Shown here in pieces: positions 2,846 to 25,309 of a DNA stretch of 64,000 nt. This stretch comes from Methanobacteriota archaeon. Lineage in GTDB: Archaea > Thermoplasmatota > E2 > DHVEG-1. The notes under the pieces are model-generated. The model saw only the letters and a program-made list of their open reading frames with translations. It was not told where the DNA came from and did not search any database. The stretch is taken from positions 1 to 64,000 of the forward strand of contig CAVYNH010000006.1 in the NCBI GenBank assembly GCA_963769885.1, written 5' to 3'. Made by a program: the position numbers and the translations under genes. The first letter of the stretch is position 1. Each line of letters starts with the position of its first letter.

Positions 2846-2866
2846 GCAGGAGGAGAGATTTGAACT
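2846..2866 (-). repeat. Degenerate copy of the tRNA-Ser 3' end
   Basis: GCAGGAGGAGAGATTTGAACT compared with tRNA GCTGGGGAGGAGATTTGAACT (2890-2910). Confidence 0.6.
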
Positions 2867-2888
2867 ACAGTAAACTTGTAAAAAATTA

Positions 2889-2976
2889 CGCTGGGGAGGA
2901 GATTTGAACTCCTGCGGCCAACGAGGACCAATAGCTCTCGAGGCTATCGCTTTGAACCGGGCTTAGCTACCCCAGC
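2889..2976 (-). tRNA. tRNA-Ser(CGA)
   Basis: Acceptor GCTGGGG/CCCCAGC-G, anticodon stem ATAGC-CTCGAGA-GCTAT, long variable arm, T-arm AGGAG-TTCAAAT-CTCCT. No encoded CCA. Confidence 0.95.
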
Positions 2977-3053
2977 ATCGGTATGTGGCCCTTCTCTGGT
3001 AGGGGGTCAAAAGTTTAATCTAAGACTTTTTTATATCCGTATCGGTCGACCCT

Positions 3054-3260: not shown

Positions 3261-3273
3261 AGAAATTTGTGTT

Positions 3274-3346
3274 GCTCCCGTGGTGTAGTGGCCAATCATA
3301 AAGCCCTCTCGAGGCTTTGACTCGGGTTCAAATCCCGACGGGAGCA
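3274..3346 (+). tRNA. tRNA-Glu(CTC); anchor of the cassette array
   Basis: Acceptor GCTCCCG/CGGGAGC-A, anticodon stem AAGCC-CTCTCGA-GGCTT, T-arm TCGGG-TTCAAAT-CCCGA. No encoded CCA. Confidence 0.95.
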
Positions 3347-3518
3347 TTCCGATAATTAGCACGATTAGAGTATTTTCTAGATCTTCTCCCATTAATATAC
3401 CTGCCAATTATTAGCGCGTAATGGGAGATTTTGATGCCTTTTAACGGTAAAGGAAGGGGGCACTGCTGAGGGTTTATAAAGCATAAAATGTTTTAAACTA
3501 GTGATTTGGGGATCATGT

Positions 3519-14221: not shown

Positions 14222-14229
14222 ATGCACTC

Positions 14230-14242
14230 CCCGACGGGAGCA
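14230..14242 (+). repeat. att-like repeat R4
   Basis: CCCGACGGGAGCA, 8 nt after the HEPN stop codon. Confidence 0.9.
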
Positions 14243-14401
14243 TTTTTTTACTGTCTACAGGAGAAAAATCATCGATTTTTCGAATCCTCACAGGGGCTCT
14301 ATTGCCAGAGGTTCAAAGCCCCCTATGGGTATTTTTACCCTTATTTTTTTGTACTAAAAAAGATTTAAATAACAAACGAGCTTTATTTTTCATAAGGAGG
14401 A

Positions 14402-15439
14402 ATGACTTTGATTAGGAAAGGACTGACGGTTATAATTATTCTTATAACCCTTGGGACTTGTATCATTCCATCCATCGCACAAGATACTGAGAAACCACTA
14501 CCAACATCAAAAGGTGATTGGTTATATGTTGGTGGCAGTGGACCAGGGAATTATACAAACATACAGAATGCCGTTGACAATGCATCTAGTGGTGATACGA
14601 TATTTGTCTATAGCGGGGTGTATACCTATTTCAAACCAGGTAATCGAGGATGCATCGACATTCAACAAAAAAATATTACATTAATAGGTCAAGACAAGGA
14701 TACAACCATCTTGGATGGCAATTGGTCAAACGGAATCGTTCATGTTGATAGCCCGATCTTTAGCATATCTGGTTTTACTGTGAGGAATAGCGGCTCATCG
14801 CACGGCCCAGGTTGGTTTGGCATCGAAATAGGTTTTAATTATAACGAAGAAACAACGATACACGATAATATCATCTGTGGAGGTCACAATGATGGCATCA
14901 TAGTCTGGGGAGGCAAATGTTCCGTGTACAATAATACAATTTTTGGTAATGCCGGGGCAATATACATGAGTACCGGCAATGGTGAGATTTTTAATAATAA
15001 AATCTCGGAAAATACCTATGGCATACATGTACTAGGATACAGCTTCGTTCATGACAATATCATACAAAATAATACTGTTGGAATATTCGTTGAGGGATCA
15101 AGTAAAGTTGAACGTAATCAAATTGAGCAAAACGATGTAGGTGTACAAACGGGAAATTCTAAAGCGAAAATTCAGAAGAACAATTTCGTTGATAATGAGA
15201 TCCAAGCCCAATATTCCAACCTCTTGGTTTTTATTAATCTGTTTTTACCGTTACCCTACCGATTCAATTGGAGAGGCAATTACTGGAATGACTGGACGTC
15301 ACCTCTTCCAAGACCAATCAAGGGATATTGGTCGTATCTATTTTTGCCTACCTTCGAAATCATTGGATCATTCCCCTCAGTTCAATTCGATTTATTGCCC
15401 TCGACTACACCGTATGACATCAAACTAACGTCAGTCTGA
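14402..15439 (+). CDS. Secreted right-handed beta-helix (NosD/CASH-like) protein (cassette 5)
   Basis: Signal peptide, WLYVGGSGPGNYTNIQNAVDNA, Asn-ladder repeats, NYW. Confidence 0.85.
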   Translation: MTLIRKGLTVIIILITLGTCIIPSIAQDTEKPLPTSKGDWLYVGGSGPGNYTNIQNAVDNASSGDTIFVYSGVYTYFKPGNRGCIDIQQKNITLIGQDKDTTILDGNWSNGIVHVDSPIFSISGFTVRNSGSSHGPGWFGIEIGFNYNEETTIHDNIICGGHNDGIIVWGGKCSVYNNTIFGNAGAIYMSTGNGEIFNNKISENTYGIHVLGYSFVHDNIIQNNTVGIFVEGSSKVERNQIEQNDVGVQTGNSKAKIQKNNFVDNEIQAQYSNLLVFINLFLPLPYRFNWRGNYWNDWTSPLPRPIKGYWSYLFLPTFEIIGSFPSVQFDLLPSTTPYDIKLTSV

Positions 15440-15538
15440 AAAAGGTAAGTATTGAATATCTCGTAACGAATCCCTTTGGGAGATTTTCTGCCAAACCTTC
15501 ACTTCCTCTCGCCTGGGGGCACTGAAGTATTGGCACAT

Positions 15539-15554
15539 AATCCCGACGGAAGCA
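15539..15554 (+). repeat. att-like repeat R5
   Basis: AATCCCGACGGAAGCA, 15/16. Confidence 0.9.
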
Positions 15555-15756
15555 TTGATACAGATCCTAAAAAAGATCTTGCTTTCCTCTTTTTAATTTG
15601 TCTAATAAGTATTTTTTCGTAAAAATACTGTTGTCTCGTCCAAAAAATGAAAGCATACCTTTAATTCACCATTGATAGTAAAAGATATGTAGGGTCATTC
15701 ATATTGAACTCACGTAATTCTTTATCTGGAAAAAATTCTTGGTTTGCAAGGAAACC

Positions 15757-17307
15757 ATGAAAAAAATCAAAGTCATCGTACTCATCGTCCTCCTTCTCTG
15801 CGTCGGTGTTTCAGGATGCATTAACCAGGCAGGGAATGACAATCAAAAAAAAAGAGAGTTACTTACCATTGGAATATCAGAAGATCCTCAAGGATTTTTT
15901 CCTTGGATTTACAGTTACGATACCTGTACGTTAGGAATAAATTTCAATATCTTCAGCCCCTTGGTCGAGTTTGATAATAGTTTTAGACTGTTTCCGAAGC
16001 TTGCAAAATCATGGAATAACCCTGATAATTGCACCTGGCGGTTTTTCCTACGACAGGACGTCAAGTTCCACAACGGGTATAATTTTACTGCGAATGACGT
16101 GAAATACACTCTCGATCTCATAAAAGACAATAGAAGTAATATACTCCGGGACTTGATTACAGAGATTAAGGAAGTCTCTGTAGTAGATAATTATACAGTC
16201 GACGTCAAGACGTTTCAGCCGTTCCCCATCCTCTTAAACAAATTGACTAATATCCCAATTGCCTCCAAAAAATATCAGGAAGAAACCCTGGAAAAATGGC
16301 CAATCGGGACCGGGGCCTATAAACTGGAAGAGTACGTTCCAAAGGATCACATCACCTTGGAAAAATTCGATGGCTATTCGATGGGACATCCGACGATACA
16401 AAAAGTCGTTTTCAAAGTAATTCCAGATAGCAAAGCATTGAAAGAAGCGTTTCTCGCAAAAGAACTTGACATCATGGAGCATGTGCTTCCCGCCGATGTG
16501 AAAGAAATATCCAACACTTCAGGACTGAGTGTAAAGAAGTTCTCAAGTCCAACCGTGTGGTATATAGGATTTGATTTCAGGGAAAACAACAGTAGTGCAT
16601 TCCCTGAGAGGAAGAATCCGTTAGCTGACGTGCGCGTCAGGGAAGCGATGTATCACGCGATTGATATCAATGCAATTCTCGGCTTGTTAGAATCGTCAGC
16701 AGAATCTGCCTCCCAGTTTTTATCACCCTTGATTTTTGGATATAACCCTGAAATCAAACGGTTATCATACGATTTGAATCTCTCCCGGCAACTTCTCCAG
16801 GAGGCAGGGTATGAAAACGGTTTTAATTTAACATTGGATTGCCAACAGGAGTATCCACTGCAAATCCAGATTTGCGGGGAAATAGTACGGCAACTTTCAC
16901 AGATCCTTACTGTTCATTTCAATCCTCTTCCCTCTGACCAATATTATATGAAGCTATATTCGAGGAATTGTTCCATTTATTTTATTGGCTGGATACCGGC
17001 GACCGGTGATGGCGGTGAAATATTTGATTATCTCCTGCGCTCCAAACATGATCCACTCGGGGTAGGATCGTATAATTTCGGATATTATTCGAACCAAACC
17101 GTCGATCAAATAACCCAGGAAGTCGCCCATACCATGAACCAGAAAACACGGAAGCTTCTGATGCGAGAGGGATTCAAGGTCGCCATGGATGATGTGGCCT
17201 GCATTCCCCTCTATATCAGCGTCTGTAATGTTGGCGTCGCCGATTATATCGACTGGACTCCAAGAGCGGATCTCATGACGCTTGTCGAAGAAATTATTGT
17301 TAAATAA
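15757..17307 (+). CDS. Family 5 (oligopeptide/nickel-type) solute-binding lipoprotein (cassette 6)
   Basis: Lipobox-like VSGC, LRQDVKFHNG, PIGTGAYKL, VREAMYHAID. Confidence 0.9.
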   Translation: MKKIKVIVLIVLLLCVGVSGCINQAGNDNQKKRELLTIGISEDPQGFFPWIYSYDTCTLGINFNIFSPLVEFDNSFRLFPKLAKSWNNPDNCTWRFFLRQDVKFHNGYNFTANDVKYTLDLIKDNRSNILRDLITEIKEVSVVDNYTVDVKTFQPFPILLNKLTNIPIASKKYQEETLEKWPIGTGAYKLEEYVPKDHITLEKFDGYSMGHPTIQKVVFKVIPDSKALKEAFLAKELDIMEHVLPADVKEISNTSGLSVKKFSSPTVWYIGFDFRENNSSAFPERKNPLADVRVREAMYHAIDINAILGLLESSAESASQFLSPLIFGYNPEIKRLSYDLNLSRQLLQEAGYENGFNLTLDCQQEYPLQIQICGEIVRQLSQILTVHFNPLPSDQYYMKLYSRNCSIYFIGWIPATGDGGEIFDYLLRSKHDPLGVGSYNFGYYSNQTVDQITQEVAHTMNQKTRKLLMREGFKVAMDDVACIPLYISVCNVGVADYIDWTPRADLMTLVEEIIVK

Positions 17308-17325
17308 CGGAGGCGAGATACATCG

Positions 17326-18969
17326 TTGTTGGCAAAACAAGTAATGAAGAAATTCCACAGCGTGAAACTCAAGGTCATCCTGCCCCTCTTGGTTATTCTT
17401 CTAGCAGTATTTCTCATTAGTTCATTGGTCATTATTGAACGGGAATCAAAGGCAGCGAAAGACACTATCATTAGCACTGCTGAGTCTTTCTCCAGCTTAT
17501 CTGTGGTCTATGTGATTGACAATTATCAGCTGTATTATGATTCTGGTTTTTATAAATTCATTGAAGTCATCGATGGTTTAATGAAACTGAACGCCAACCT
17601 CATCGAAACACAAATCGTCGATGTGAACGGGAAAATTCTCTTCGACTACACGGAGATACAGGAAGGAAAATACAATGAACAGACAAACGGGGAACGATTC
17701 CTCGAAAATGCAACATTGATACAAAGAGCCGGCGACCCGACCTCTTCTCTTATTCTCAATGAAACCACACGACGTATTGACATCATCCAGCCGTATTTCG
17801 ATGAAACGGGGAGACATGACTATTCCGTGAGATATGTTTTTTCGCTTTCTCGTCTGGATGCAATGACACACGAGATGATTATTACCATATTGATGTATTC
17901 TGGCGTCTTCATTGTCGTGTCTTTCCTCCTGATTTATTTCCTTTTTAATTACTTCATTTCAGCTCCGATCGGGGAGTTGACCAAAGGCGTTCGTACGATG
18001 AGCACCGGAACGCTAGGACATAAGGTGAACATCACATCAAAGGATGAAATCGGTGAGTTGGCAACCGCATTCAATACGATGAGCGCCGATCTCAAGCTTT
18101 CCAGAGACAATTTGGAGGAGTACAGCAAAAATCTGGAAAAACTCGTGGCTGAACGTACAAAAGAATTAGAAGAAAAAACGAATCGTCTTCAGCAAATCAA
18201 TCAAGATTTACTGGTCGCACGAGAAGAGCTCAACGTATTGAATAAGAATCTCGAGGAACGAGTAATAGAACGAACAAAAGAAGTGGAGAAATTACTCAAG
18301 CAAAAAGATGAGTTCATCACCCAACTGGGTCACGATCTGAAAAATCCTCTAGGTCCCCTGATCAATCTACTTCCACTCCTTGAAGAACAAGAAGCGGATG
18401 CTGCAAAAAAAGAGATGTTGACTGTTCTGCATCGGAATGCCGATTACATGAGAAATCTCGTTGTCAAAACACTCGAACTTGCGGTGTTAAATTCTCCGAA
18501 TACGAAGTTTTCCATTGAAAGGATGAACCTATATACAGAAGTCAGCCAAATCATTGAACATAAAAAGATTCTGTTCGATGTAAAACAAGTAAAAATTTCT
18601 AACAATATCGATCATGCGTTGTTCGTAAAAGCAGACCGATTACGACTTGAAGAGCTGCTGACAAACATCTTTGAAAATTCTGTGAAATACTGCAAAGAGG
18701 AGTGCAAGATTATCATCGATGCAGAACAGACAAATGACCTCGCCAAAATCTCTATCGCAGATAAGGGCATCGGGATGACCAAAGAAGAAATCGAACGCAT
18801 CTTTGACGAGTTCTACAAAGCCGATTCTGCGCGTCATGACATTCAGAGTACTGGACTAGGAATGTCGATTTGTAAACGAATTGTTGAGAAACATGGGGGT
18901 AGTATTTGGGTGGAAAGCAAGGGTCCTGGCAAGGGCACAACCGTGTTCTTCACCTTACCAGCAGCATAA
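17326..18969 (+). CDS. Membrane sensor histidine kinase with HAMP domain (cassette 6)
   Basis: Two TM segments, HAMP (DEIGELATAFNTM), H-box GHDLKNPL, N/G1/F/G2 boxes. Confidence 0.92.
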   Translation: MLAKQVMKKFHSVKLKVILPLLVILLAVFLISSLVIIERESKAAKDTIISTAESFSSLSVVYVIDNYQLYYDSGFYKFIEVIDGLMKLNANLIETQIVDVNGKILFDYTEIQEGKYNEQTNGERFLENATLIQRAGDPTSSLILNETTRRIDIIQPYFDETGRHDYSVRYVFSLSRLDAMTHEMIITILMYSGVFIVVSFLLIYFLFNYFISAPIGELTKGVRTMSTGTLGHKVNITSKDEIGELATAFNTMSADLKLSRDNLEEYSKNLEKLVAERTKELEEKTNRLQQINQDLLVAREELNVLNKNLEERVIERTKEVEKLLKQKDEFITQLGHDLKNPLGPLINLLPLLEEQEADAAKKEMLTVLHRNADYMRNLVVKTLELAVLNSPNTKFSIERMNLYTEVSQIIEHKKILFDVKQVKISNNIDHALFVKADRLRLEELLTNIFENSVKYCKEECKIIIDAEQTNDLAKISIADKGIGMTKEEIERIFDEFYKADSARHDIQSTGLGMSICKRIVEKHGGSIWVESKGPGKGTTVFFTLPAA

Positions 18970-19094
18970 CTGCCTTAAGACGGAGAAAAAGAGACTGGAT
19001 TTCTCATTGTCATCAACAGAAATATTTCATTGAGTTCACCTACAGAAATAAATATTAAAGACGTCCAAGATATATCTGTAGAGGCAGAGAAATC

Positions 19095-19481
19095 ATGAAA
19101 AAAATCATGTTAGTCGATGATGAAAAGGATCAGATATTTTTCATTAAAACTTCTTTTAAGAATTTATTTGGAAAAGATTATATGATTGTCCCTGCCGAGA
19201 GCGGCGAAAAATGCTTTGAACTATTAAATAAGCAAGAGATCCCTGATCTAATACTTTTGGATATCATGATGCCAAAGATGAACGGATGGGAGGTGTTCGA
19301 CCGGCTACGCGCGAATCCCTTGTGGAAGGATATTCCGATTATCTTTCTGACTGCGCGAACCGATGAATTTGCTGAGCATGCAGGAGTGCTCATCGCCGAA
19401 GATTACATTAAGAAACCAATTGAAATTAAAGAGTTAAAGATCCGTATCGATAATGTGTTAAAAAAGTCGAAGAAGAAATAG
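19095..19481 (+). CDS. Single-domain response regulator (cassette 6)
   Basis: LVDD, LLDIMMPKMNG, FLTA, KP. Confidence 0.92.
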   Translation: MKKIMLVDDEKDQIFFIKTSFKNLFGKDYMIVPAESGEKCFELLNKQEIPDLILLDIMMPKMNGWEVFDRLRANPLWKDIPIIFLTARTDEFAEHAGVLIAEDYIKKPIEIKELKIRIDNVLKKSKKK

Positions 19482-19535
19482 CACAAACATGTTCTCCCAT
19501 ATTTCTCCTTTACTCTATGGTTTTTTGTAAAACGA

Positions 19536-20507
19536 TTATATTTTCTCGGGGAGAATATTCGATTTGAATACCTCGGTGACATAGAGGTAGTCATAATTTG
19601 CGATGTCGTCAGGGAATTTTTTTCGTAGGTCTTCCATCACACAGTAGAAGTGTTCAAAATTCGTCGCATATAATGCGATTTCCAGGTCATACCCACCGAT
19701 TGCCTTATGAATCTCCCAGAGGAATGGGTTATCGCTTAGATAGGTGATGATTTGGTTTTTCTTGTTGTAGTCACGGAGGGATAGGTTGACAATGAATTCC
19801 CGTAAGCCAAGTTTATTGATATCCATTGTAATTGAATACCTTTGGATGACCCCTGATTTAATGAGTTTGTTTGTCCGAGAATGAACGGTCACTGTCGACG
19901 CATTCACTTGGGCGGCGATTTCAACGCTGTTGATCCGTGTGTTTTTTGCAAGCAGATTTAATATTTTATGGTCTATTGCGTCGACGTCAACAGTAAACCC
20001 ATTGTCTCGATATTCATAGGCATGTTCATGCGACGCTTCTAGTTCGTTGATAAGGAGGGAGTGTTTATATCCGAATGATTCGTAGAGCTGAGAAAAAAAT
20101 ATTTCTTTGAAATAATACCGATAGTGCCGTAGGGTTTCTTCATAGAACGCATAAAAATGGTTCGGGGATTTCACAAGGATAGTAATGATGAGATCGTACC
20201 GCCCCTTTGTGGATGCGATTTTCCAGGTGTTATCATGGTTGACAAAATGGGCGACAATCTCCTTTTCCTTATCGGGTGACGCGTACTGGAGAACAATATA
20301 AAGACGGTAAACAGAAAACCCAAGTTTAAAGACATCAATCATGGCATTGAAACCCTTAATGATTCCTTTGGCCTGCAGCCGTTTGATTCGGTATTCGACG
20401 ACATTTTTTTGGAGACCGACTTCTTTTGCTATGGATGAAAAAGACTGCCTGGAGTTCAAAAACAAATGATAGAGAATTTTATGGTCCTTGGAATCGAGTT
20501 CTCGCAC
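19536..20507 (-). CDS. Tandem-domain Lrp/AsnC regulator (cassette 6)
   Basis: Two HTH-AsnC units (LDSKDHKIL..., VDAIDHKIL...). Confidence 0.88.
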   Translation of the reverse strand: MRELDSKDHKILYHLFLNSRQSFSSIAKEVGLQKNVVEYRIKRLQAKGIIKGFNAMIDVFKLGFSVYRLYIVLQYASPDKEKEIVAHFVNHDNTWKIASTKGRYDLIITILVKSPNHFYAFYEETLRHYRYYFKEIFFSQLYESFGYKHSLLINELEASHEHAYEYRDNGFTVDVDAIDHKILNLLAKNTRINSVEIAAQVNASTVTVHSRTNKLIKSGVIQRYSITMDINKLGLREFIVNLSLRDYNKKNQIITYLSDNPFLWEIHKAIGGYDLEIALYATNFEHFYCVMEDLRKKFPDDIANYDYLYVTEVFKSNILPEKI

Positions 20508-20759
20508 AAAAAATCATCGTTTATTGAGCTATTAAATTTTTCCAATTTTTTTTCCTATTACTACTATCATTCCGGATGGTAGGTGGAGCGAAGCCGGAAA
20601 TGATGATTTTATGAAAATTGGACAAATCCACAATCACCTCGTAATTTATTTTCTTTTTGAGCAAATTTCTTGGATATAGTCTTTAGTAATGCATCATCGC
20701 TGTTTTTTCATGAGGCAAACCAATGGAAAATGCTGTTCCATACATAGGAAGGTAAGAAT

Positions 20760-22133
20760 ATGAAAAAGATCATAGCATTTTTGGCGATAGGGATTTTGAC
20801 CCTAGGCGGAATTGGGGCGAGTGCGTTTTCTACCAATAACATCAAGACACGAATGACAAGTGCTGACGATTATGACATGGTGATCATCGCGCCGGAAAAA
20901 TTTGTCTCGTCTCTCCAACCTCTTGTTAATCATAAAAACAGCCATGATGTCCATACATCCATAAAAACAACCGAGGCAATTTATACAGAATACGAAGGTC
21001 GGGATAAGGCTGAGCAAATAAAGTATTTCATTAAAGATGCTATTGAACGATGGAATATTCAATATGTCTTACTTGTTGGTGGGATGAAACCTCTCAGTTT
21101 TCATTGGCTTGTCCCTGTCAGATACTCAAATCTGGATGATGGATCCGCCCATAAAGTATTCCTTACTGATTTGTACTTTGCTGATATCTATAAGGGTAAC
21201 ACCTCAGAGTTTGACGATTGGGATAGCAATGGCAACGGGGTGTTTGCCGAGTGGGGGGTTAACGGTGATAAGCTGGATTTGAAGCCCGATGTTGCTGTCG
21301 GTCGGCTTCCCTGTAGAACGACTGGTGAAGTAAAAACAGTGGTTGAAAAAATTATCACCTATGAGAATACGACATATGGAAAAAGATGGTTTCGACAAAT
21401 GGTCGTTGTTGGAAGTGATACCTTCCCTGATCATCCTGGATATGAGGGTGAAGCCACCTGTGATATTGCCGCTAGTTATATGGAAAATTTCGCCATAAAA
21501 AGGTTATACGCGTCAACTGGGAATCTATCAGGTCCAGACGACATTATTGGTGCGGTGAATCTGGGATGTGGGTTTTTATTGACTCGTGGACAAGGCGGGA
21601 CCGATCGAGTGAGAATGGTGATGCCGAATGGATCAGAGTTCATCGCTTTTGATATCGACTCGATTTCAAAGTTAAAAAATAAAGATATGTACCCGATTTG
21701 TGTGTTAGCTGAATGTATTCATGGTCGATTCGACGTGGGAAGAATCAACATTCTGAAATTACTTCAGAAGAATCCTGAGTATAACATCTATGATTGCATC
21801 TACGAATGCATCGCATGGAGGTTAGTGAGAGAAAAGAACGCGGGAGCCATCGCCACAATAACAAATACAAACATCTGTTACGGCGCCTATGGTGATAATA
21901 ATCATAATGGTATTCCTGATGACGCAGAATTCTATGGAGGGTTCCTTGGGGTTGAACTATTCCGACTATACGCTCAAGAGGGACTAAATACGCTTGGTGC
22001 GCTTCATCAACAAGCGTTACTTAACTATATTAAATTGTACCCTGTGTACACAGATAAAATTCACTGTAAAAGCGTGCAGGAGTTTATCCTCTTCGGTGAT
22101 CCGAGTTTAAAAATCGGAGGATACGCAGAATAA
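20760..22133 (+). CDS. C25 (gingipain-like) peptidase homolog (cassette 6)
   Basis: Signal peptide, YVLLVGG, TDLYFADI, VGRLP, LFGDPSL. The position of the catalytic His reads GQG. Confidence 0.85.
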   Translation: MKKIIAFLAIGILTLGGIGASAFSTNNIKTRMTSADDYDMVIIAPEKFVSSLQPLVNHKNSHDVHTSIKTTEAIYTEYEGRDKAEQIKYFIKDAIERWNIQYVLLVGGMKPLSFHWLVPVRYSNLDDGSAHKVFLTDLYFADIYKGNTSEFDDWDSNGNGVFAEWGVNGDKLDLKPDVAVGRLPCRTTGEVKTVVEKIITYENTTYGKRWFRQMVVVGSDTFPDHPGYEGEATCDIAASYMENFAIKRLYASTGNLSGPDDIIGAVNLGCGFLLTRGQGGTDRVRMVMPNGSEFIAFDIDSISKLKNKDMYPICVLAECIHGRFDVGRINILKLLQKNPEYNIYDCIYECIAWRLVREKNAGAIATITNTNICYGAYGDNNHNGIPDDAEFYGGFLGVELFRLYAQEGLNTLGALHQQALLNYIKLYPVYTDKIHCKSVQEFILFGDPSLKIGGYAE

Positions 22134-22253
22134 ATTCGTATTCCTTTTCATCGAAAATATCATCGGGGGATGCTTACCGCTCGTGAGCGAACTTCGTAGC
22201 GGATTTCATACCAGACAGTAACTTCCTCCTGGGGGTTTGAACCCTTTACATGT

Positions 22254-22269
22254 AATCCCGACGGGAGCA
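22254..22269 (+). repeat. att-like repeat R6
   Basis: AATCCCGACGGGAGCA, 16/16. Confidence 0.95.
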
Positions 22270-22421
22270 TTGTTTCACTGTCTTCAGGAGAAAAAAAGGT
22301 CACTTTTCGCATCCCCTTTTGAGCATTTATGCCAGAGACTCAAATCCATTCCCTTGCATATTTTTATATACATGATTCATGTTACTTGCCATGTATTAGC
22401 ATAGCATAAAGAGGCGGATTA

Positions 22422-23318
22422 ATGAAAAGAAAATGTATGACGGTTGGAATCATTTTCTTGTTCGTGGGAATCAGCGCAATTCAAACGATTGCACAGGATA
22501 CTGAGAAAACGCTACCAACATTAAGAGGTAGTTGGTTGTACGTCGGTGGGAGTGGACCTGGAAACTATTCGAGAATACAGGATGCTATTAATAATGCGAG
22601 TGATGAAAATACGGTTTTTGTATATGATGACAGCTCACCATATTATGAAAATCTTATTATTAATAAATCAATTTCATTGATAGGCGAAAAAAAAGAGACA
22701 ACAATTATTGATGGAAGCGGCGGCAACATAATTATATTGATACAACAAACTGAAAATGTCCAAATACAAGGATTCACTATACGAAACAGCTCACGTTCAA
22801 AAATCGATTGGGATTATGCGAAGGGGATAGGAATTCAACTATTAGCGGCAAAATTTTGTAACATTTCTGATACAATAATTACTAATACAGATGTAGGAAT
22901 CTGTCTATTAAACTATATCTGGAATGAATTTACAGATAGTAATATGCTTTCAAAAAATATTATCATAAAAAATTCATTTGGTATAGCTCTTGATTGGGGA
23001 AGTGGTTACACTACCATAGAAAACAATGACCTTCGACTTAATTGGTACGGGTTAATAATTATCACTACAAATTCTAACACCATTATTAAAAATAATTTTA
23101 TGTGGAATTTCCGTTCGGTTTTACTGACCACTGACATTATGTGGCCGGATGGTAATCCACTCGATGAAATTGATCATAACATGTGGTCAATGAATTATTG
23201 GGGGCGATCTCAGTTTCTTCATCTCATACTTGGTCAAGCAAGAGTGGTCTATGATCATGCATCATGGAATGTTAGATATTTTGAGGTTGACTGGCATCCT
23301 GCACAAGAACCTTACTGA
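22422..23318 (+). CDS. Secreted NosD/CASH-like beta-helix protein (cassette 7)
   Basis: WLYVGGSGPGNYSRIQDAINNA, NYW, DWHPAQEPY. The stop codon lies inside the cassette right arm. Confidence 0.85.
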   Translation: MKRKCMTVGIIFLFVGISAIQTIAQDTEKTLPTLRGSWLYVGGSGPGNYSRIQDAINNASDENTVFVYDDSSPYYENLIINKSISLIGEKKETTIIDGSGGNIIILIQQTENVQIQGFTIRNSSRSKIDWDYAKGIGIQLLAAKFCNISDTIITNTDVGICLLNYIWNEFTDSNMLSKNIIIKNSFGIALDWGSGYTTIENNDLRLNWYGLIIITTNSNTIIKNNFMWNFRSVLLTTDIMWPDGNPLDEIDHNMWSMNYWGRSQFLHLILGQARVVYDHASWNVRYFEVDWHPAQEPY

Positions 23319-23331
23319 ACTATTGGCACGT

Positions 23332-23350
23332 ATTCCCGACGGGAACACCA
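23332..23350 (+). repeat. att-like repeat R7, followed by CCA
   Basis: ATTCCCGACGGGAACA-CCA. Confidence 0.85.
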
Positions 23351-23407
23351 TTGGGGCATTGAATCTCGAGTGATAGTCCCTGGTAGGGGAATTGAAAGGA
23401 AGGCTTT

Positions 23408-25039
23408 CTATTCCTTTTCAAGGAAGGGATACTTGTAGTCTGTCGGGGGCAGTAAATTTTCCTTGATGGTCCGCGGGCTGACCCAGGATAGTAAATTGAG
23501 GTACGAACCGGACTTATCGTTCGTCCCTGAGCATCGTGCGCCGCCAAAGGGTTGTTGCCCGACAACCGCACCCGTTGGTTTGTCATTAATGTAGAAGTTC
23601 CCCGCAGCATGCCTCAGAATCTTTGTTGCCAAGACAATTGCGTGGCGATCCTTGGCGAAAATCGACCCAGTCAACGCATAGGGTGATGTCTGGTCACATG
23701 TATGCAAGGTTTCTTCGAACTGGTCATCGTTGTACACATACACAGTCAGCACAGGGCCGAAGATTTCCTCTTCCATGGTGACGAAGTGTGGATTGGTCGT
23801 CTCAATGATGGTTGGTTCGACGAAGTAGCCTGTGGAGCCGTCGGTTTTTCCGCCGACGAGGATCTTCGCCTCGTTGGAATGACGGGCCTTCTCGATGTAC
23901 TCACAGATCGTATCAAACGCTGCCTTGTCGATGACGGCGTTGACGAAAGTGGTGAAATCCTCGACATCTCCTGTTTTGATCTCCTTAAGCACGGTCAGGA
24001 CACTGGTTTTCACGGAAGGCCAAAGGGAGGCAGGGATATAGGCCCGGGAGGCGGCGGAGCATTTCTGGCCTTGGTATTCAAACGCACCGCGGACCATGGC
24101 GGTAGCAACAGCTGCGGTATCAGCGGATGGGTGGACAAAGATGAAGTCTTTTCCGCCGGTCTCCCCGACGAGTTTCGGGTAGTTGTCATAGATGCTGAGG
24201 TTGTCGCTGATGGTCCTCCAAAACTTGCTGAAGACCGGTGTTGACCCGGTGAAATGGATGCCTGCTAGTCGCTTGTCTTTCAGGGCGACATTGCCGATGA
24301 GTTCACCGGAGCCGGGGAGGAAATTGATGACGCCGCGTGGGAATCCGGCTTCCAGGAAGATCTCCATGAGAAGGCTGTTCGATAGCAGCGAGGTCGATGC
24401 TGGTTTCCAGATCACGACGTTGCCTAGGATTGCTGGCGCAGTTGGGAGATTTCCTGCAATCGCTGTGAAGTTGAACGGAGTCACGACGAAGATGAATCCT
24501 TCCAGGGGCCGGTATTCAAGTCGGTTCAACGTCCCGGGAGAGGCATCAGGCTGGTCAGAGTAGACTTTCTGCATGTAGTAGGCGTTAAAACGCAGGAAAT
24601 CAATCATTTCGCAGGCGGCGTCAATCTCGGCCTGGTACGCGTTCTTGCTTTGGCCAAGCATGGTCGCTGCATTCAGCAAGAAGCGGTATTTTTTGGAGAT
24701 GAGTTCCGCTGCCTTCAAAGCGACGGATGCCCGTTCCGCCCAGGGGAGATCTTCCCAGGCGGGTTTGGCGGCCATGGCCGTTTCAATGGCATCGTGCACG
24801 AGCGCTGCGGTGACTTTATGATACGACGCTAAGACGCGGCGATGGTTATGCGGCATGACGACTTTCCCGACGTCACCGGTCGGGATTCTTCTTCCCCCGA
24901 TGATAGGTAGAATTTCTGTTTTCTTGCTTTGGAGAGTCTTGATTGCCTCAACGAGGGCTTTTCGTTCAGGGCTTCCGGGAGCATATTGGTAGGTTGGTTC
25001 ATTGGAGGGTTTAGGAATGTGAATAATGGTTTCGTCCAG
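23408..25039 (-). CDS. pruA: L-glutamate gamma-semialdehyde (P5C) dehydrogenase (cassette 8)
   Basis: NEP..YAPGSPER, ETGGKDF, EYQGQKCSA, EEIFGP, QQPFGG. The frame extends 61 codons past ATG 24856 to CTG 25039, preceded by GGTGAT. Confidence 0.92.
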   Translation of the reverse strand: MDETIIHIPKPSNEPTYQYAPGSPERKALVEAIKTLQSKKTEILPIIGGRRIPTGDVGKVVMPHNHRRVLASYHKVTAALVHDAIETAMAAKPAWEDLPWAERASVALKAAELISKKYRFLLNAATMLGQSKNAYQAEIDAACEMIDFLRFNAYYMQKVYSDQPDASPGTLNRLEYRPLEGFIFVVTPFNFTAIAGNLPTAPAILGNVVIWKPASTSLLSNSLLMEIFLEAGFPRGVINFLPGSGELIGNVALKDKRLAGIHFTGSTPVFSKFWRTISDNLSIYDNYPKLVGETGGKDFIFVHPSADTAAVATAMVRGAFEYQGQKCSAASRAYIPASLWPSVKTSVLTVLKEIKTGDVEDFTTFVNAVIDKAAFDTICEYIEKARHSNEAKILVGGKTDGSTGYFVEPTIIETTNPHFVTMEEEIFGPVLTVYVYNDDQFEETLHTCDQTSPYALTGSIFAKDRHAIVLATKILRHAAGNFYINDKPTGAVVGQQPFGGARCSGTNDKSGSYLNLLSWVSPRTIKENLLPPTDYKYPFLEKE

Positions 25040-25180
25040 CGTCGATCACCAGTGACAAAGCATGGACAATAACTATATAATTACTTGTTTGGGAACTGAA
25101 CCTTTGGCCCATATTTCCTTCAGGGGATTTTTGCAAAAATATTCTTCCACGCTCCTGGCGAAAGTGAACCCTCGGTAGGC

Positions 25181-25196
25181 AATCCCGACGGAAGCC
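25181..25196 (+). repeat. att-like repeat R8 (distal end of the array)
   Basis: AATCCCGACGGAAGCC, 14/16, preceded by a family-B right arm. Confidence 0.85.
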
Positions 25197-25309
25197 TTTC
25201 TCTCCGACCCCAAAACGGCATTAAACATGAAAGAATTCGCCTATATTTATGACTCAACAAAGTATTTAAATAATGAATGATGGTTAATTAGTTAAGGGAG
25301 GACAACAGA

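Follow-up and report, generated by a model that had tools for sequence, protein, structure and literature searches.

A conserved box beside tRNA-Glu-derived cores in an archaeal cassette array as a putative attachment site of integrase-less cassettes

How can gene cassettes accumulate behind a single tRNA gene when no enzyme that would insert them is encoded among them? This question is raised by the first 64,000 nucleotides of contig CAVYNH010000006.1 (G000:C6:1-64000; this whole stretch is called the window here), which belongs to a Thermoplasmatota genome (G000) of 2.09 Mb in 7 contigs that is 92% complete. The 3' end (last 11-20 nt) of a tRNA-Glu(CTC) gene is repeated eight times downstream of that gene within an island of low guanine-plus-cytosine (GC) content, 35-47% until ~24 kb compared with 55-62% rightward. 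Direct repeats of this attachment core bound each of eight units lying in 22 kb, with an integrase in none of them. The sequences that adjoin the cores are called arms here (L, to the left of the cargo; R, to its right; numbered by cassette), and the subject of this work is arm family B, which is found at cassettes 5-8. From the comparisons described below, we think it fairly probable that arm family B is the attP-type site of an integrase-less cassette lineage that targets tRNA-Glu and is inserted by a tyrosine integrase encoded elsewhere.

The first-pass annotation of this DNA had claimed a left arm of ~95 nt common to cassettes 5 and 7, and a right arm common to cassettes 5-8 in which TGAA precedes the core at a fixed distance across a variable interior. 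For comparison against shuffled controls, left arms were taken as the 95 nt after the core and right arms as the 60 nt before it, with the core excluded. L5 and L7 (window positions 14225-14420 and 22252-22440) were 77% identical over the first ~96 columns after the core and then diverged until the ribosome-binding site; without gaps, identity was 74% over 91 nt. Their local alignment score of 70 compares with 16.2 +/- 3.1 in shuffles (z=17), and no other left-arm pair came near it except L1/L2 of the other arm family, A. Amongst the right arms, z was ~6.7 for R5-R6, R5-R7 and R5-R8 and 3.5 for R6-R8, and the similarities of R6-R7 and R7-R8 were not significant against shuffles. The sequence A(A/T)TCCCGAC lies exactly 12 nt after TGAA in all four right arms (15523, 22238, 23316 and 25165). 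Thus, the left arm and the fixed spacing were borne out, and a common right arm holds for R5, R6 and R8, with R7 having its last ~36 nt alone. The 12-nt interior, on the other hand, is conserved and not variable: R5/R7 and R6/R8 form two subtypes, and over 20 copies of the former in other genomes show almost no variation.

The right arm contains a conserved box, TGAA(G/C)-N3-TGGCA, that sits 3 nt upstream of the tRNA-Glu-derived core. Exact copies of this 13-nt element (TGAA-N4-TGGCA) number four in the window, all of them within B arms, compared with ~0.5 expected by chance. R5 (15523) and R7 (23316) each hold a direct copy, and the two inverted ones belong to L5 (14303) and to the 5' half of R5 (15489); copies with one mismatch are found in L7 (22330, inverted) and R8 (25097). 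In R7 the TGA of the box (23316-23318) doubles as the stop codon of the open reading frame (ORF) at 22422-23318, so that the boundary between cargo and arm lies exactly at TGAA.

In lambda-type attP, the arm-type sites are copies of a short box that flank the core at fixed distances and are inverted with respect to each other. By analogy, the left and right B arms, which carry one box in opposite orientations as attP arm-type sites often do, can be read as putative sites of this kind. The further claim of the first-pass annotation, that these are protein-binding sites for a recombinase or directionality factor, fared accordingly in two parts: a conserved box at fixed spacing would fit a protein-binding site, but neither of these proteins was found by Pfam scans among the ORFs of at least 100 aa in 3348-25300, which span the array.

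A long form of the right arm was recovered by nhmmer in R5, R6 and R8, where an imperfect dyad of ~110 nt extends from a degenerate core to the true core. An alignment of 16 sequences from eight genomes showed that the dyad is made of three boxes (6, 5 and 5 nt) separated by mismatched 3-nt spacers, that the 13-nt element corresponds to its middle and outer boxes, and that its right half ends in the AATCCC of the core. Pairing was possible in 80.8% of alignment cells, compared with 19-49% in slid registers, and covariation was not clearly above shuffles (the score was reached or exceeded in 33 of 500). As the dyad is paired without an excess of compensatory changes, its conservation is one of sequence, and a folded form would be hypothetical. 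The idea of a structured RNA or hairpin with covariation support was rejected, given a weak RNAalifold result (-6 kcal/mol, with a covariation term of -0.3) and a small upstream hairpin that failed the count. The arm was also considered as the decayed body of a tRNA-Glu and rejected as such: when set against 2000 shuffles, a profile of 16 arms gave no better match to the 5' part of any tRNA, the Rfam tRNA model had no match at the arms, and pairwise comparison with tRNA was not significant. R7 and several copies in relatives keep the right dyad half alone. Separately, an orphan right-arm-B module in its full form was observed outside the window (G000:C6:77279-77385, minus strand); its left arm is A-type, its Glu core is degenerate, and it lies ~74 kb from the tRNA-Glu gene in the opposite orientation.

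Conservation across genomes provided additional evidence that the right arm is a defined unit. The pattern TGWA-N12-AWTCCCGAC had 40 matches, in 23 of the 101 genomes of the archaeal family, compared with 6 for the reversed control, and the R5/R7 subtype was nearly invariant across genera g1, g12, g14 and g18. Exact scans located the conserved form of ~25-27 nt in 6 named contigs of metagenome-assembled genomes (MAGs) and in 31 metagenome contigs, and matched no viral contig; the related contigs sharing right arm B are labelled as Thermoplasmatota or Thermoplasmatales MAGs. Outside a conserved stretch of ~35 nt the flanks are unrelated between loci, the cargo differs (a hydrolase, an FG-GAP protein, an arylsulfotransferase and others), and the arm is always joined to a Glu core, being found on a tRNA-Leu core in 0 of the 101 genomes. 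Arm and Glu core therefore travel with the cassette as one unit. Copies in genus g18 (up to 85%) resemble R5 more closely than the copies of its congener do, which suggests transfer of cassettes between genera. Both A-type and B-type arms were found again in related genomes, and cassettes 1 and 2 are A-type on both sides as cassettes 5 and 7 are B-type on both, which upholds, at the level of single cassettes, the earlier proposal that two lineages feed one array.

The left arm turned out to be composite and not the single ~95-nt arm that had been described. Its first part consists of a motif and a hairpin (Table 1), an arrangement that also follows Glu cores in G003 (of the same genus), G050, G080 and G098. 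A decayed tRNA-Leu core makes up the last third, and the promoter of Leu-type cassettes comes after it; cassettes 5 and 7 have a TATA-type promoter of their own. In relatives this promoter stands directly after intact Leu cores or a tRNA-Leu gene and before NosD-like or other genes, and the same succession of Leu core, promoter and NosD-like gene is present at G000:C7 ~509.9 kb. We also checked whether the left arm is only the generic promoter of NosD-like genes with no tRNA core, and this did not hold. In a BLAST comparison with 100 relatives, the coding and promoter parts were matched alone, with matches beginning at query position ~107, and homologous left arms were recovered solely by anchoring on the core. 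Altogether, the observation of an arm family B is confirmed and its earlier interpretation is partly supported.

Two further observations concern the elements seen in the left arm. An apparent intron-containing tRNA-Leu (anticodon region TAA), not called by ARAGORN, lies directly after tRNA-Gly at G000:C7:508750-508890 and heads a small array with another NosD-like paralogue. Additionally, directly downstream of tRNA-Phe and tRNA-Thr(GGT), neither of which has a cassette, a T-run is followed by CTCCTGTTG (G000:C5:64983-65007 and C7:113990-114014); this inverse motif may be a native half-site or a terminator.

The mechanism that we propose would account for both arms. The right arm moves with the cassette; it is a 13-nt box that is followed, after 3 nt, by a copy of the final ~16 nt of tRNA-Glu, and it stands alone (R7) or within the ~110-nt imperfect dyad (R5, R6 and R8). 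The left arm starts with the motif and hairpin typical of the tRNA-proximal arm of one archaeal tyrosine-integrase family, followed by the inverted box. Cassettes 5 and 7 would then be two-site (Leu and Glu) cassettes that have retained a decayed tRNA-Leu core and a Leu-type promoter and that could fit either array. A circle excised via its Leu sites and re-inserted via its Glu site would bear the Leu-type junction at its left end, giving the order Glu core, Glu-type left arm, Leu-type right arm, Leu core, promoter, cargo, right arm B, Glu core. This order is the anatomy of cassettes 5 and 7, from which we infer why the 95-nt arm is shared and holds a Leu core.

Units with two such sites occur in metagenome contigs L155 and L149, in which tRNA-Leu(GAG) and a Leu repeat enclose a cassette that consists of a Leu-type promoter, cargo, a short right arm B with its Glu core, 245 nt and a Leu-type right arm. 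Apparent Leu-left/Glu-right cassettes were rejected as proof of recombination between unlike sites, given the Leu repeat ~260 nt past the Glu core. At another locus (L182:450-810, metagenome contig Ga0315268_10021589), Leu and Glu cores alternate at intervals of 40-130 nt with conserved spacers and no genes between them, which looks like a stack of empty junction modules.

Comparison with relatives also revealed differences in array content, which point to turnover of cassettes. In G003 the tRNA-Glu(CTC) gene is followed by a gene-less module of left arm plus right arm and nothing more, and the content of the array is wholly different between G000 and G003. The aldehyde dehydrogenase of cassette 8 has a homologue in G003 (77% DNA identity to window 23412-25089), where it belongs to an array with Glu(TTC) cores and different, A-type arms. 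The tRNA-Glu array of G050 has B and A arms with entirely different cargo.

The genome has eight PF00589 matches, four of which are full-length integrases adjoining tRNAs; none of the eight lies near the array, and no IntI-type integrase with attI and a platform promoter was found at the array head. The nearest candidate in the genome for an enzyme supplied in trans would be a 450-aa tyrosine integrase that adjoins tRNA-Arg(CCG) (G000:C4:132044-133396). The first 14 of the last 22 nt of this tRNA are identical to those of tRNA-Glu (GTTCAAATCCCGAC), and the closest relatives of the integrase (41-46% identity) reside at tRNA-Glu(CTC) and tRNA-Glu(TTC) in other genera. Its family was found in 39 of 61 genomes of the archaeal family, adjoins at least 10 tRNA species, and combines a weak PF00589 match (32-49 bits) with a long uncharacterised N-terminal part; no relatives of the C4 integrase were found in the phage collection.

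The left-arm motif links the array to this integrase family. A GGAG-type motif occurs within 30 nt downstream (6-14 nt after the tRNA) of 19 of the 22 tRNAs that face such an integrase, compared with a rate of 7% in random 30-mers, and integrase-bearing elements, some of them at tRNA-Glu, share the motif. In G001, an 8.3-kb element at tRNA-Glu(CTC) is headed by an integrase 42% identical to the one on C4 and has related arms, and a 1.6-kb unit in G060 has the same left arm as this element and no integrase. In metagenome contig L177, a Glu-core array that includes an arm-B and an arm-A cassette has as its distal unit an element with an integrase of this family. Given the relatives resident at tRNA-Glu and these three loci, supply of the integrase in trans would be the most economical reading. 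The anatomy of the arms, their conservation and the tie between the left-arm motif and the integrase family are seen directly in the sequences; binding of the box and the motif by the integrase, its action in trans and continuing mobility of the cassettes are inferred from them.

Side observations were also made on integrases and their sites. A hairpin-type right arm is present in three copies on Arg-CCG-type or Glu-TTC-like cores in or beside the candidate-integrase island (G000:C4:70843, 114865 and 146532), which hints that one arm type may serve several similar cores. The integrase ORFs at G000:C7:200123-201409 and at locus L071:441-2078 run into or through the adjoining tRNA gene on the opposite strand, so that integration changes the C-terminal tail of the integrase.

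Several points weigh against insertion in trans by this integrase family. The GGAG-type pattern was written after the sequences had been seen, and GGAG-rich motifs also serve as ribosome-binding sites. L6 and L8 are without the left-arm motif despite the B-type R6 and R8. Right arm B was not found as the end of any integrase-bearing element, that of L177 included, and no integrase lies in or next to the array in G000 or the inspected arrays of G003, G050, G086 and G098. The C4 integrase itself sits at another tRNA, and its action on Glu cores is hypothetical. Additionally, assemblies often end right after tRNA-Glu, and for this reason comparisons of presence and absence are few.

Some of these points are shared by an account in which the cassettes are inert scars, that is, immobile remnants of old integrations whose integrase genes were deleted, their likeness being due to descent or to occasional transfer of whole islands. 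An array without an integrase would be expected under this account, as would the decay of several Glu cores and of the Leu core, the motif missing from L6 and L8, and the orphan arm module far from any tRNA-Glu. It is difficult to reconcile with a 25-nt right arm that is almost invariant in four genera and 31 metagenome contigs amid unrelated flanks, with a congeneric genome in which the same cargo has other arms, or with the wholly different array contents of G000 and G003; we regard it as unlikely, if deserving of some weight. An effect at the RNA level, with the arms acting mainly as a terminator, a processing signal or a tRNA-like RNA between cassettes, is suggested by the hairpin and T-run of left arm B directly after the tRNA or core, which would end tRNA or cassette transcripts. 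Against it, no Rfam family matched at the arms at E<=1, the right-arm profile matched no tRNA body better than shuffles, covariation was not significant, and a terminator role would add to a role in recombination and not replace one, all of which makes this account very improbable.

Capture in the manner of integrons would have the right arm act as a folded, single-stranded, attC-like hairpin whose 3' end is the core, used by an unlinked recombinase with little need of homology. The three-box dyads of R5, R6 and R8, which end in the core and pair far better than in slid registers, agree with such a role, as do integrase-less arrays in five genomes and the existence of gene-less arm modules. 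The covariation and folding results given above speak against it, and so does the right dyad half kept alone in R7 and in several copies of relatives. Cassettes with their own promoters, genes in either orientation and conserved left arms are also contrary to this reading, as integron cassettes have no such left arms, and the apparent Leu-left/Glu-right cassettes are explained by the Leu repeat beyond them. We therefore consider integron-like capture improbable. A bolder idea, which we hold to be doubtful and only slightly more credible, is that these arrays amount to an archaeal integron counterpart anchored at tRNA genes, in which a hairpin-forming site ending in a tRNA-derived core would let an unlinked recombinase capture cassettes and shuffle them between tRNA-Glu and tRNA-Leu platforms, with nested sites as adaptors. 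Casposon-type insertion, by which a Cas1 casposase would have stacked mini-elements at the tRNA and the cores would be target-site duplications, was the least probable account of all that were weighed. Casposons do target tRNA 3' ends (PMC4046053, PMC10359463), but Cas1 (PF01867) had no match in the 92%-complete G000, was above the cut-off in 7 of 61 family genomes and in none of G003, G001, G004, G060 and G050, and was rejected as the inserting enzyme. Unlike in casposons, the repeat length varies (11-20 nt) and no terminal repeats abut a fixed-length duplication, the inverted boxes lying 3 nt and ~59 nt from the core.

With insertion in trans by a tyrosine integrase as the preferred reading, the array can be compared with known systems. 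By analogy, it may work like tandem accretion with cis-mobilisable elements (CIMEs). CIMEs of the ICESt1/ICESt3 type are att-flanked and integrase-less, are stacked at one site, and presumably depend on a related element for the integrase that moves them (PMC5704250). The array is like them in its att-flanked, integrase-less units stacked at one site, and differs in its archaeal host, its tRNA 3'-end site, its many single-gene units of 1-2 kb, the occurrence of its arm modules across genera, and some nested Leu/Glu sites, with no conjugative helper known. In tRNA and tmRNA islands, tyrosine integrases target the tRNA 3' end and displaced tRNA fragments mark the island ends (Islander, PMC4383910), and both tandem insertion and the loss of integrase genes are documented (PMC4383910; for archaeal integrated elements, PMC8371274). 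The 3'-end target and the displaced tRNA fragments are shared with the array, which differs in having eight integrase-less units in 22 kb and short arm boxes sharply conserved across unrelated cargo. In the tycheposon islands of Prochlorococcus, which the array brings to mind in its ecology, cargo modules and partial tRNAs accumulate beside a few tRNA genes and reshape islands (bioRxiv 10.1101/2020.12.28.424599). Tycheposons, with which the array was compared by description, have their own recombinase and usually a replication module, and their integrases form a separate bacterial clade; Pfam scans found in the array neither a tyrosine or large serine recombinase nor a replication module.

Integrons were compared as well. 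In integrons and in clusters of attC sites lacking integron integrases (CALINs), the cassette carries an imperfect palindrome whose end is the crossover point, arrays occur without a nearby integrase, and gene-less units exist; archaeal integrons have reportedly been described by Ghaly et al. in 2022. The array resembles these in its cassette-borne imperfect palindrome, its lack of a nearby integrase and its gene-less units, and differs in having no IntI, a tRNA-derived core, conserved left arms, own promoters, both orientations and no significant structural covariation. Against these descriptions, the density of integrase-less single-gene units, the short arm box found across genera and the nested Leu/Glu cassettes look new.

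The coordinates of the arms and cassettes are collected in Table 1. The cores lie at 14230, 15539, 22254, 23332 and 25181, and by its GC profile the low-GC island ends at R8. The cargo begins with OsmC and a P-type ATPase, followed by PFK, glucan phosphorylase and pyruvate kinase, a winged-helix protein and an MNT-HEPN pair, and continues with a NosD-like protein, the genes of cassette 6, a second NosD-like protein and aldehyde dehydrogenase. Gene orientation is mixed, and it is the genes for aldehyde dehydrogenase and the Lrp-type regulator that occupy the minus strand. Apart from a conserved stretch of 60 N-terminal residues, the two NosD-like proteins have just 39% identity.

Table 1. Positions in the window of the tRNA anchor, the B arms and the cargo of cassettes 5-8.
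Feature	Position	Strand	Evidence and details
tRNA-Glu(CTC), array anchor	3273..3347	+	ARAGORN; Rfam tRNA 60 bits
Core copy, left boundary of cassette 5	14230..14244	+	Repeat search
L5 proximal part: T-run, ACAGGAGAAAA motif 14257-14267, 8-bp A/T hairpin 14263-14281	14245..14281	+	Read from sequence
L5 fragment resembling the 5' half of right arm B, inverted box 14303-14315	14282..14324	+	Weak nhmmer match (E 0.15); exact minus-strand box match
L5 decayed tRNA-Leu 3' core, then T-run	14310..14339	+	Compared with Leu cores preceding homologous genes in relatives and at G000:C7 ~509.9 kb
Cassette 5 promoter region, TATA-like element near 14364-14371	14340..14401	+	Common to cassettes after Leu cores
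Cassette 5 cargo, secreted NosD-like beta-helix protein	14402..15439	+	PF05048
R5, full right arm B	15449..15557	+	nhmmer E 2e-26; inverted box 15489-15501, box 15523-15535, core 15539-15556
R5 dyad halves	15478-15501 and 15523-15544	+	Dyad counts
Cassette 6 cargo: solute-binding protein, histidine kinase, response regulator, Lrp-type regulator (minus strand), C25 peptidase	15557..22165		Pfam
R6, full right arm B	22166..22272	+	TGAA 22238, core 22254-22271; nhmmer E 2e-18
L7, left arm B: motif 22285-22294, inverted box 22330-22342 (1 mismatch), Leu-like core 22339-22359	22272..22364	+	
Cassette 7 cargo, NosD-like paralogue	22422..23318	+	39% identical to cassette 5 protein
R7, short right arm B	23314..23349	+	Box 23316-23328, core 23332-23346; nhmmer E 1.5e-7
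Cassette 8 cargo, aldehyde dehydrogenase	23408..24856	-	PF00171
R8, full right arm B	25091..25199	+	TGAA 25165, core 25181-25196; nhmmer E 5e-18

Repeats of tRNA 3' ends were also observed at other tRNA genes. A tRNA-Ser(CGA) gene on the minus strand (window 2846-2977) faces low-GC DNA at the contig start. Its 3' end recurs in degenerate form 44 nt downstream, and the contig end may therefore truncate a second array. At least 10 further tRNA genes of G000 (Pro-CGG, Glu-TTC, Leu-CAA, Ser-GCT, Val-GAC, Met, Leu-GAG, Arg-GCG, Leu-CAG and His) are followed by 1-3 copies of their own 3' end, 0.4-13 kb apart, with examples at C1:42299-46221, C4:197701-200111, C6:590100-599869 and C7:72948-88962. The Pro-CGG cassettes have inverted-repeat arms of ~30 nt around the core. 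ARAGORN also called a tRNA with a four-base anticodon (gtag) at G000:C6:618985-619075.

If the preferred reading is correct, the array would show how a widespread and uncultured archaeal family of sediments and wetlands gains and swaps single accessory genes, amongst them genes for surface proteins, transporters, glycolytic enzymes and toxin-antitoxin pairs. The exchanged units would be similar to integron cassettes and yet made from tRNA attachment sites. The box and the motif would be candidates for the sites bound by an uncharacterised family of archaeal integrases with at least 10 tRNA species as targets, and two-site cassettes would account for the movement of cargo among islands at different tRNAs.

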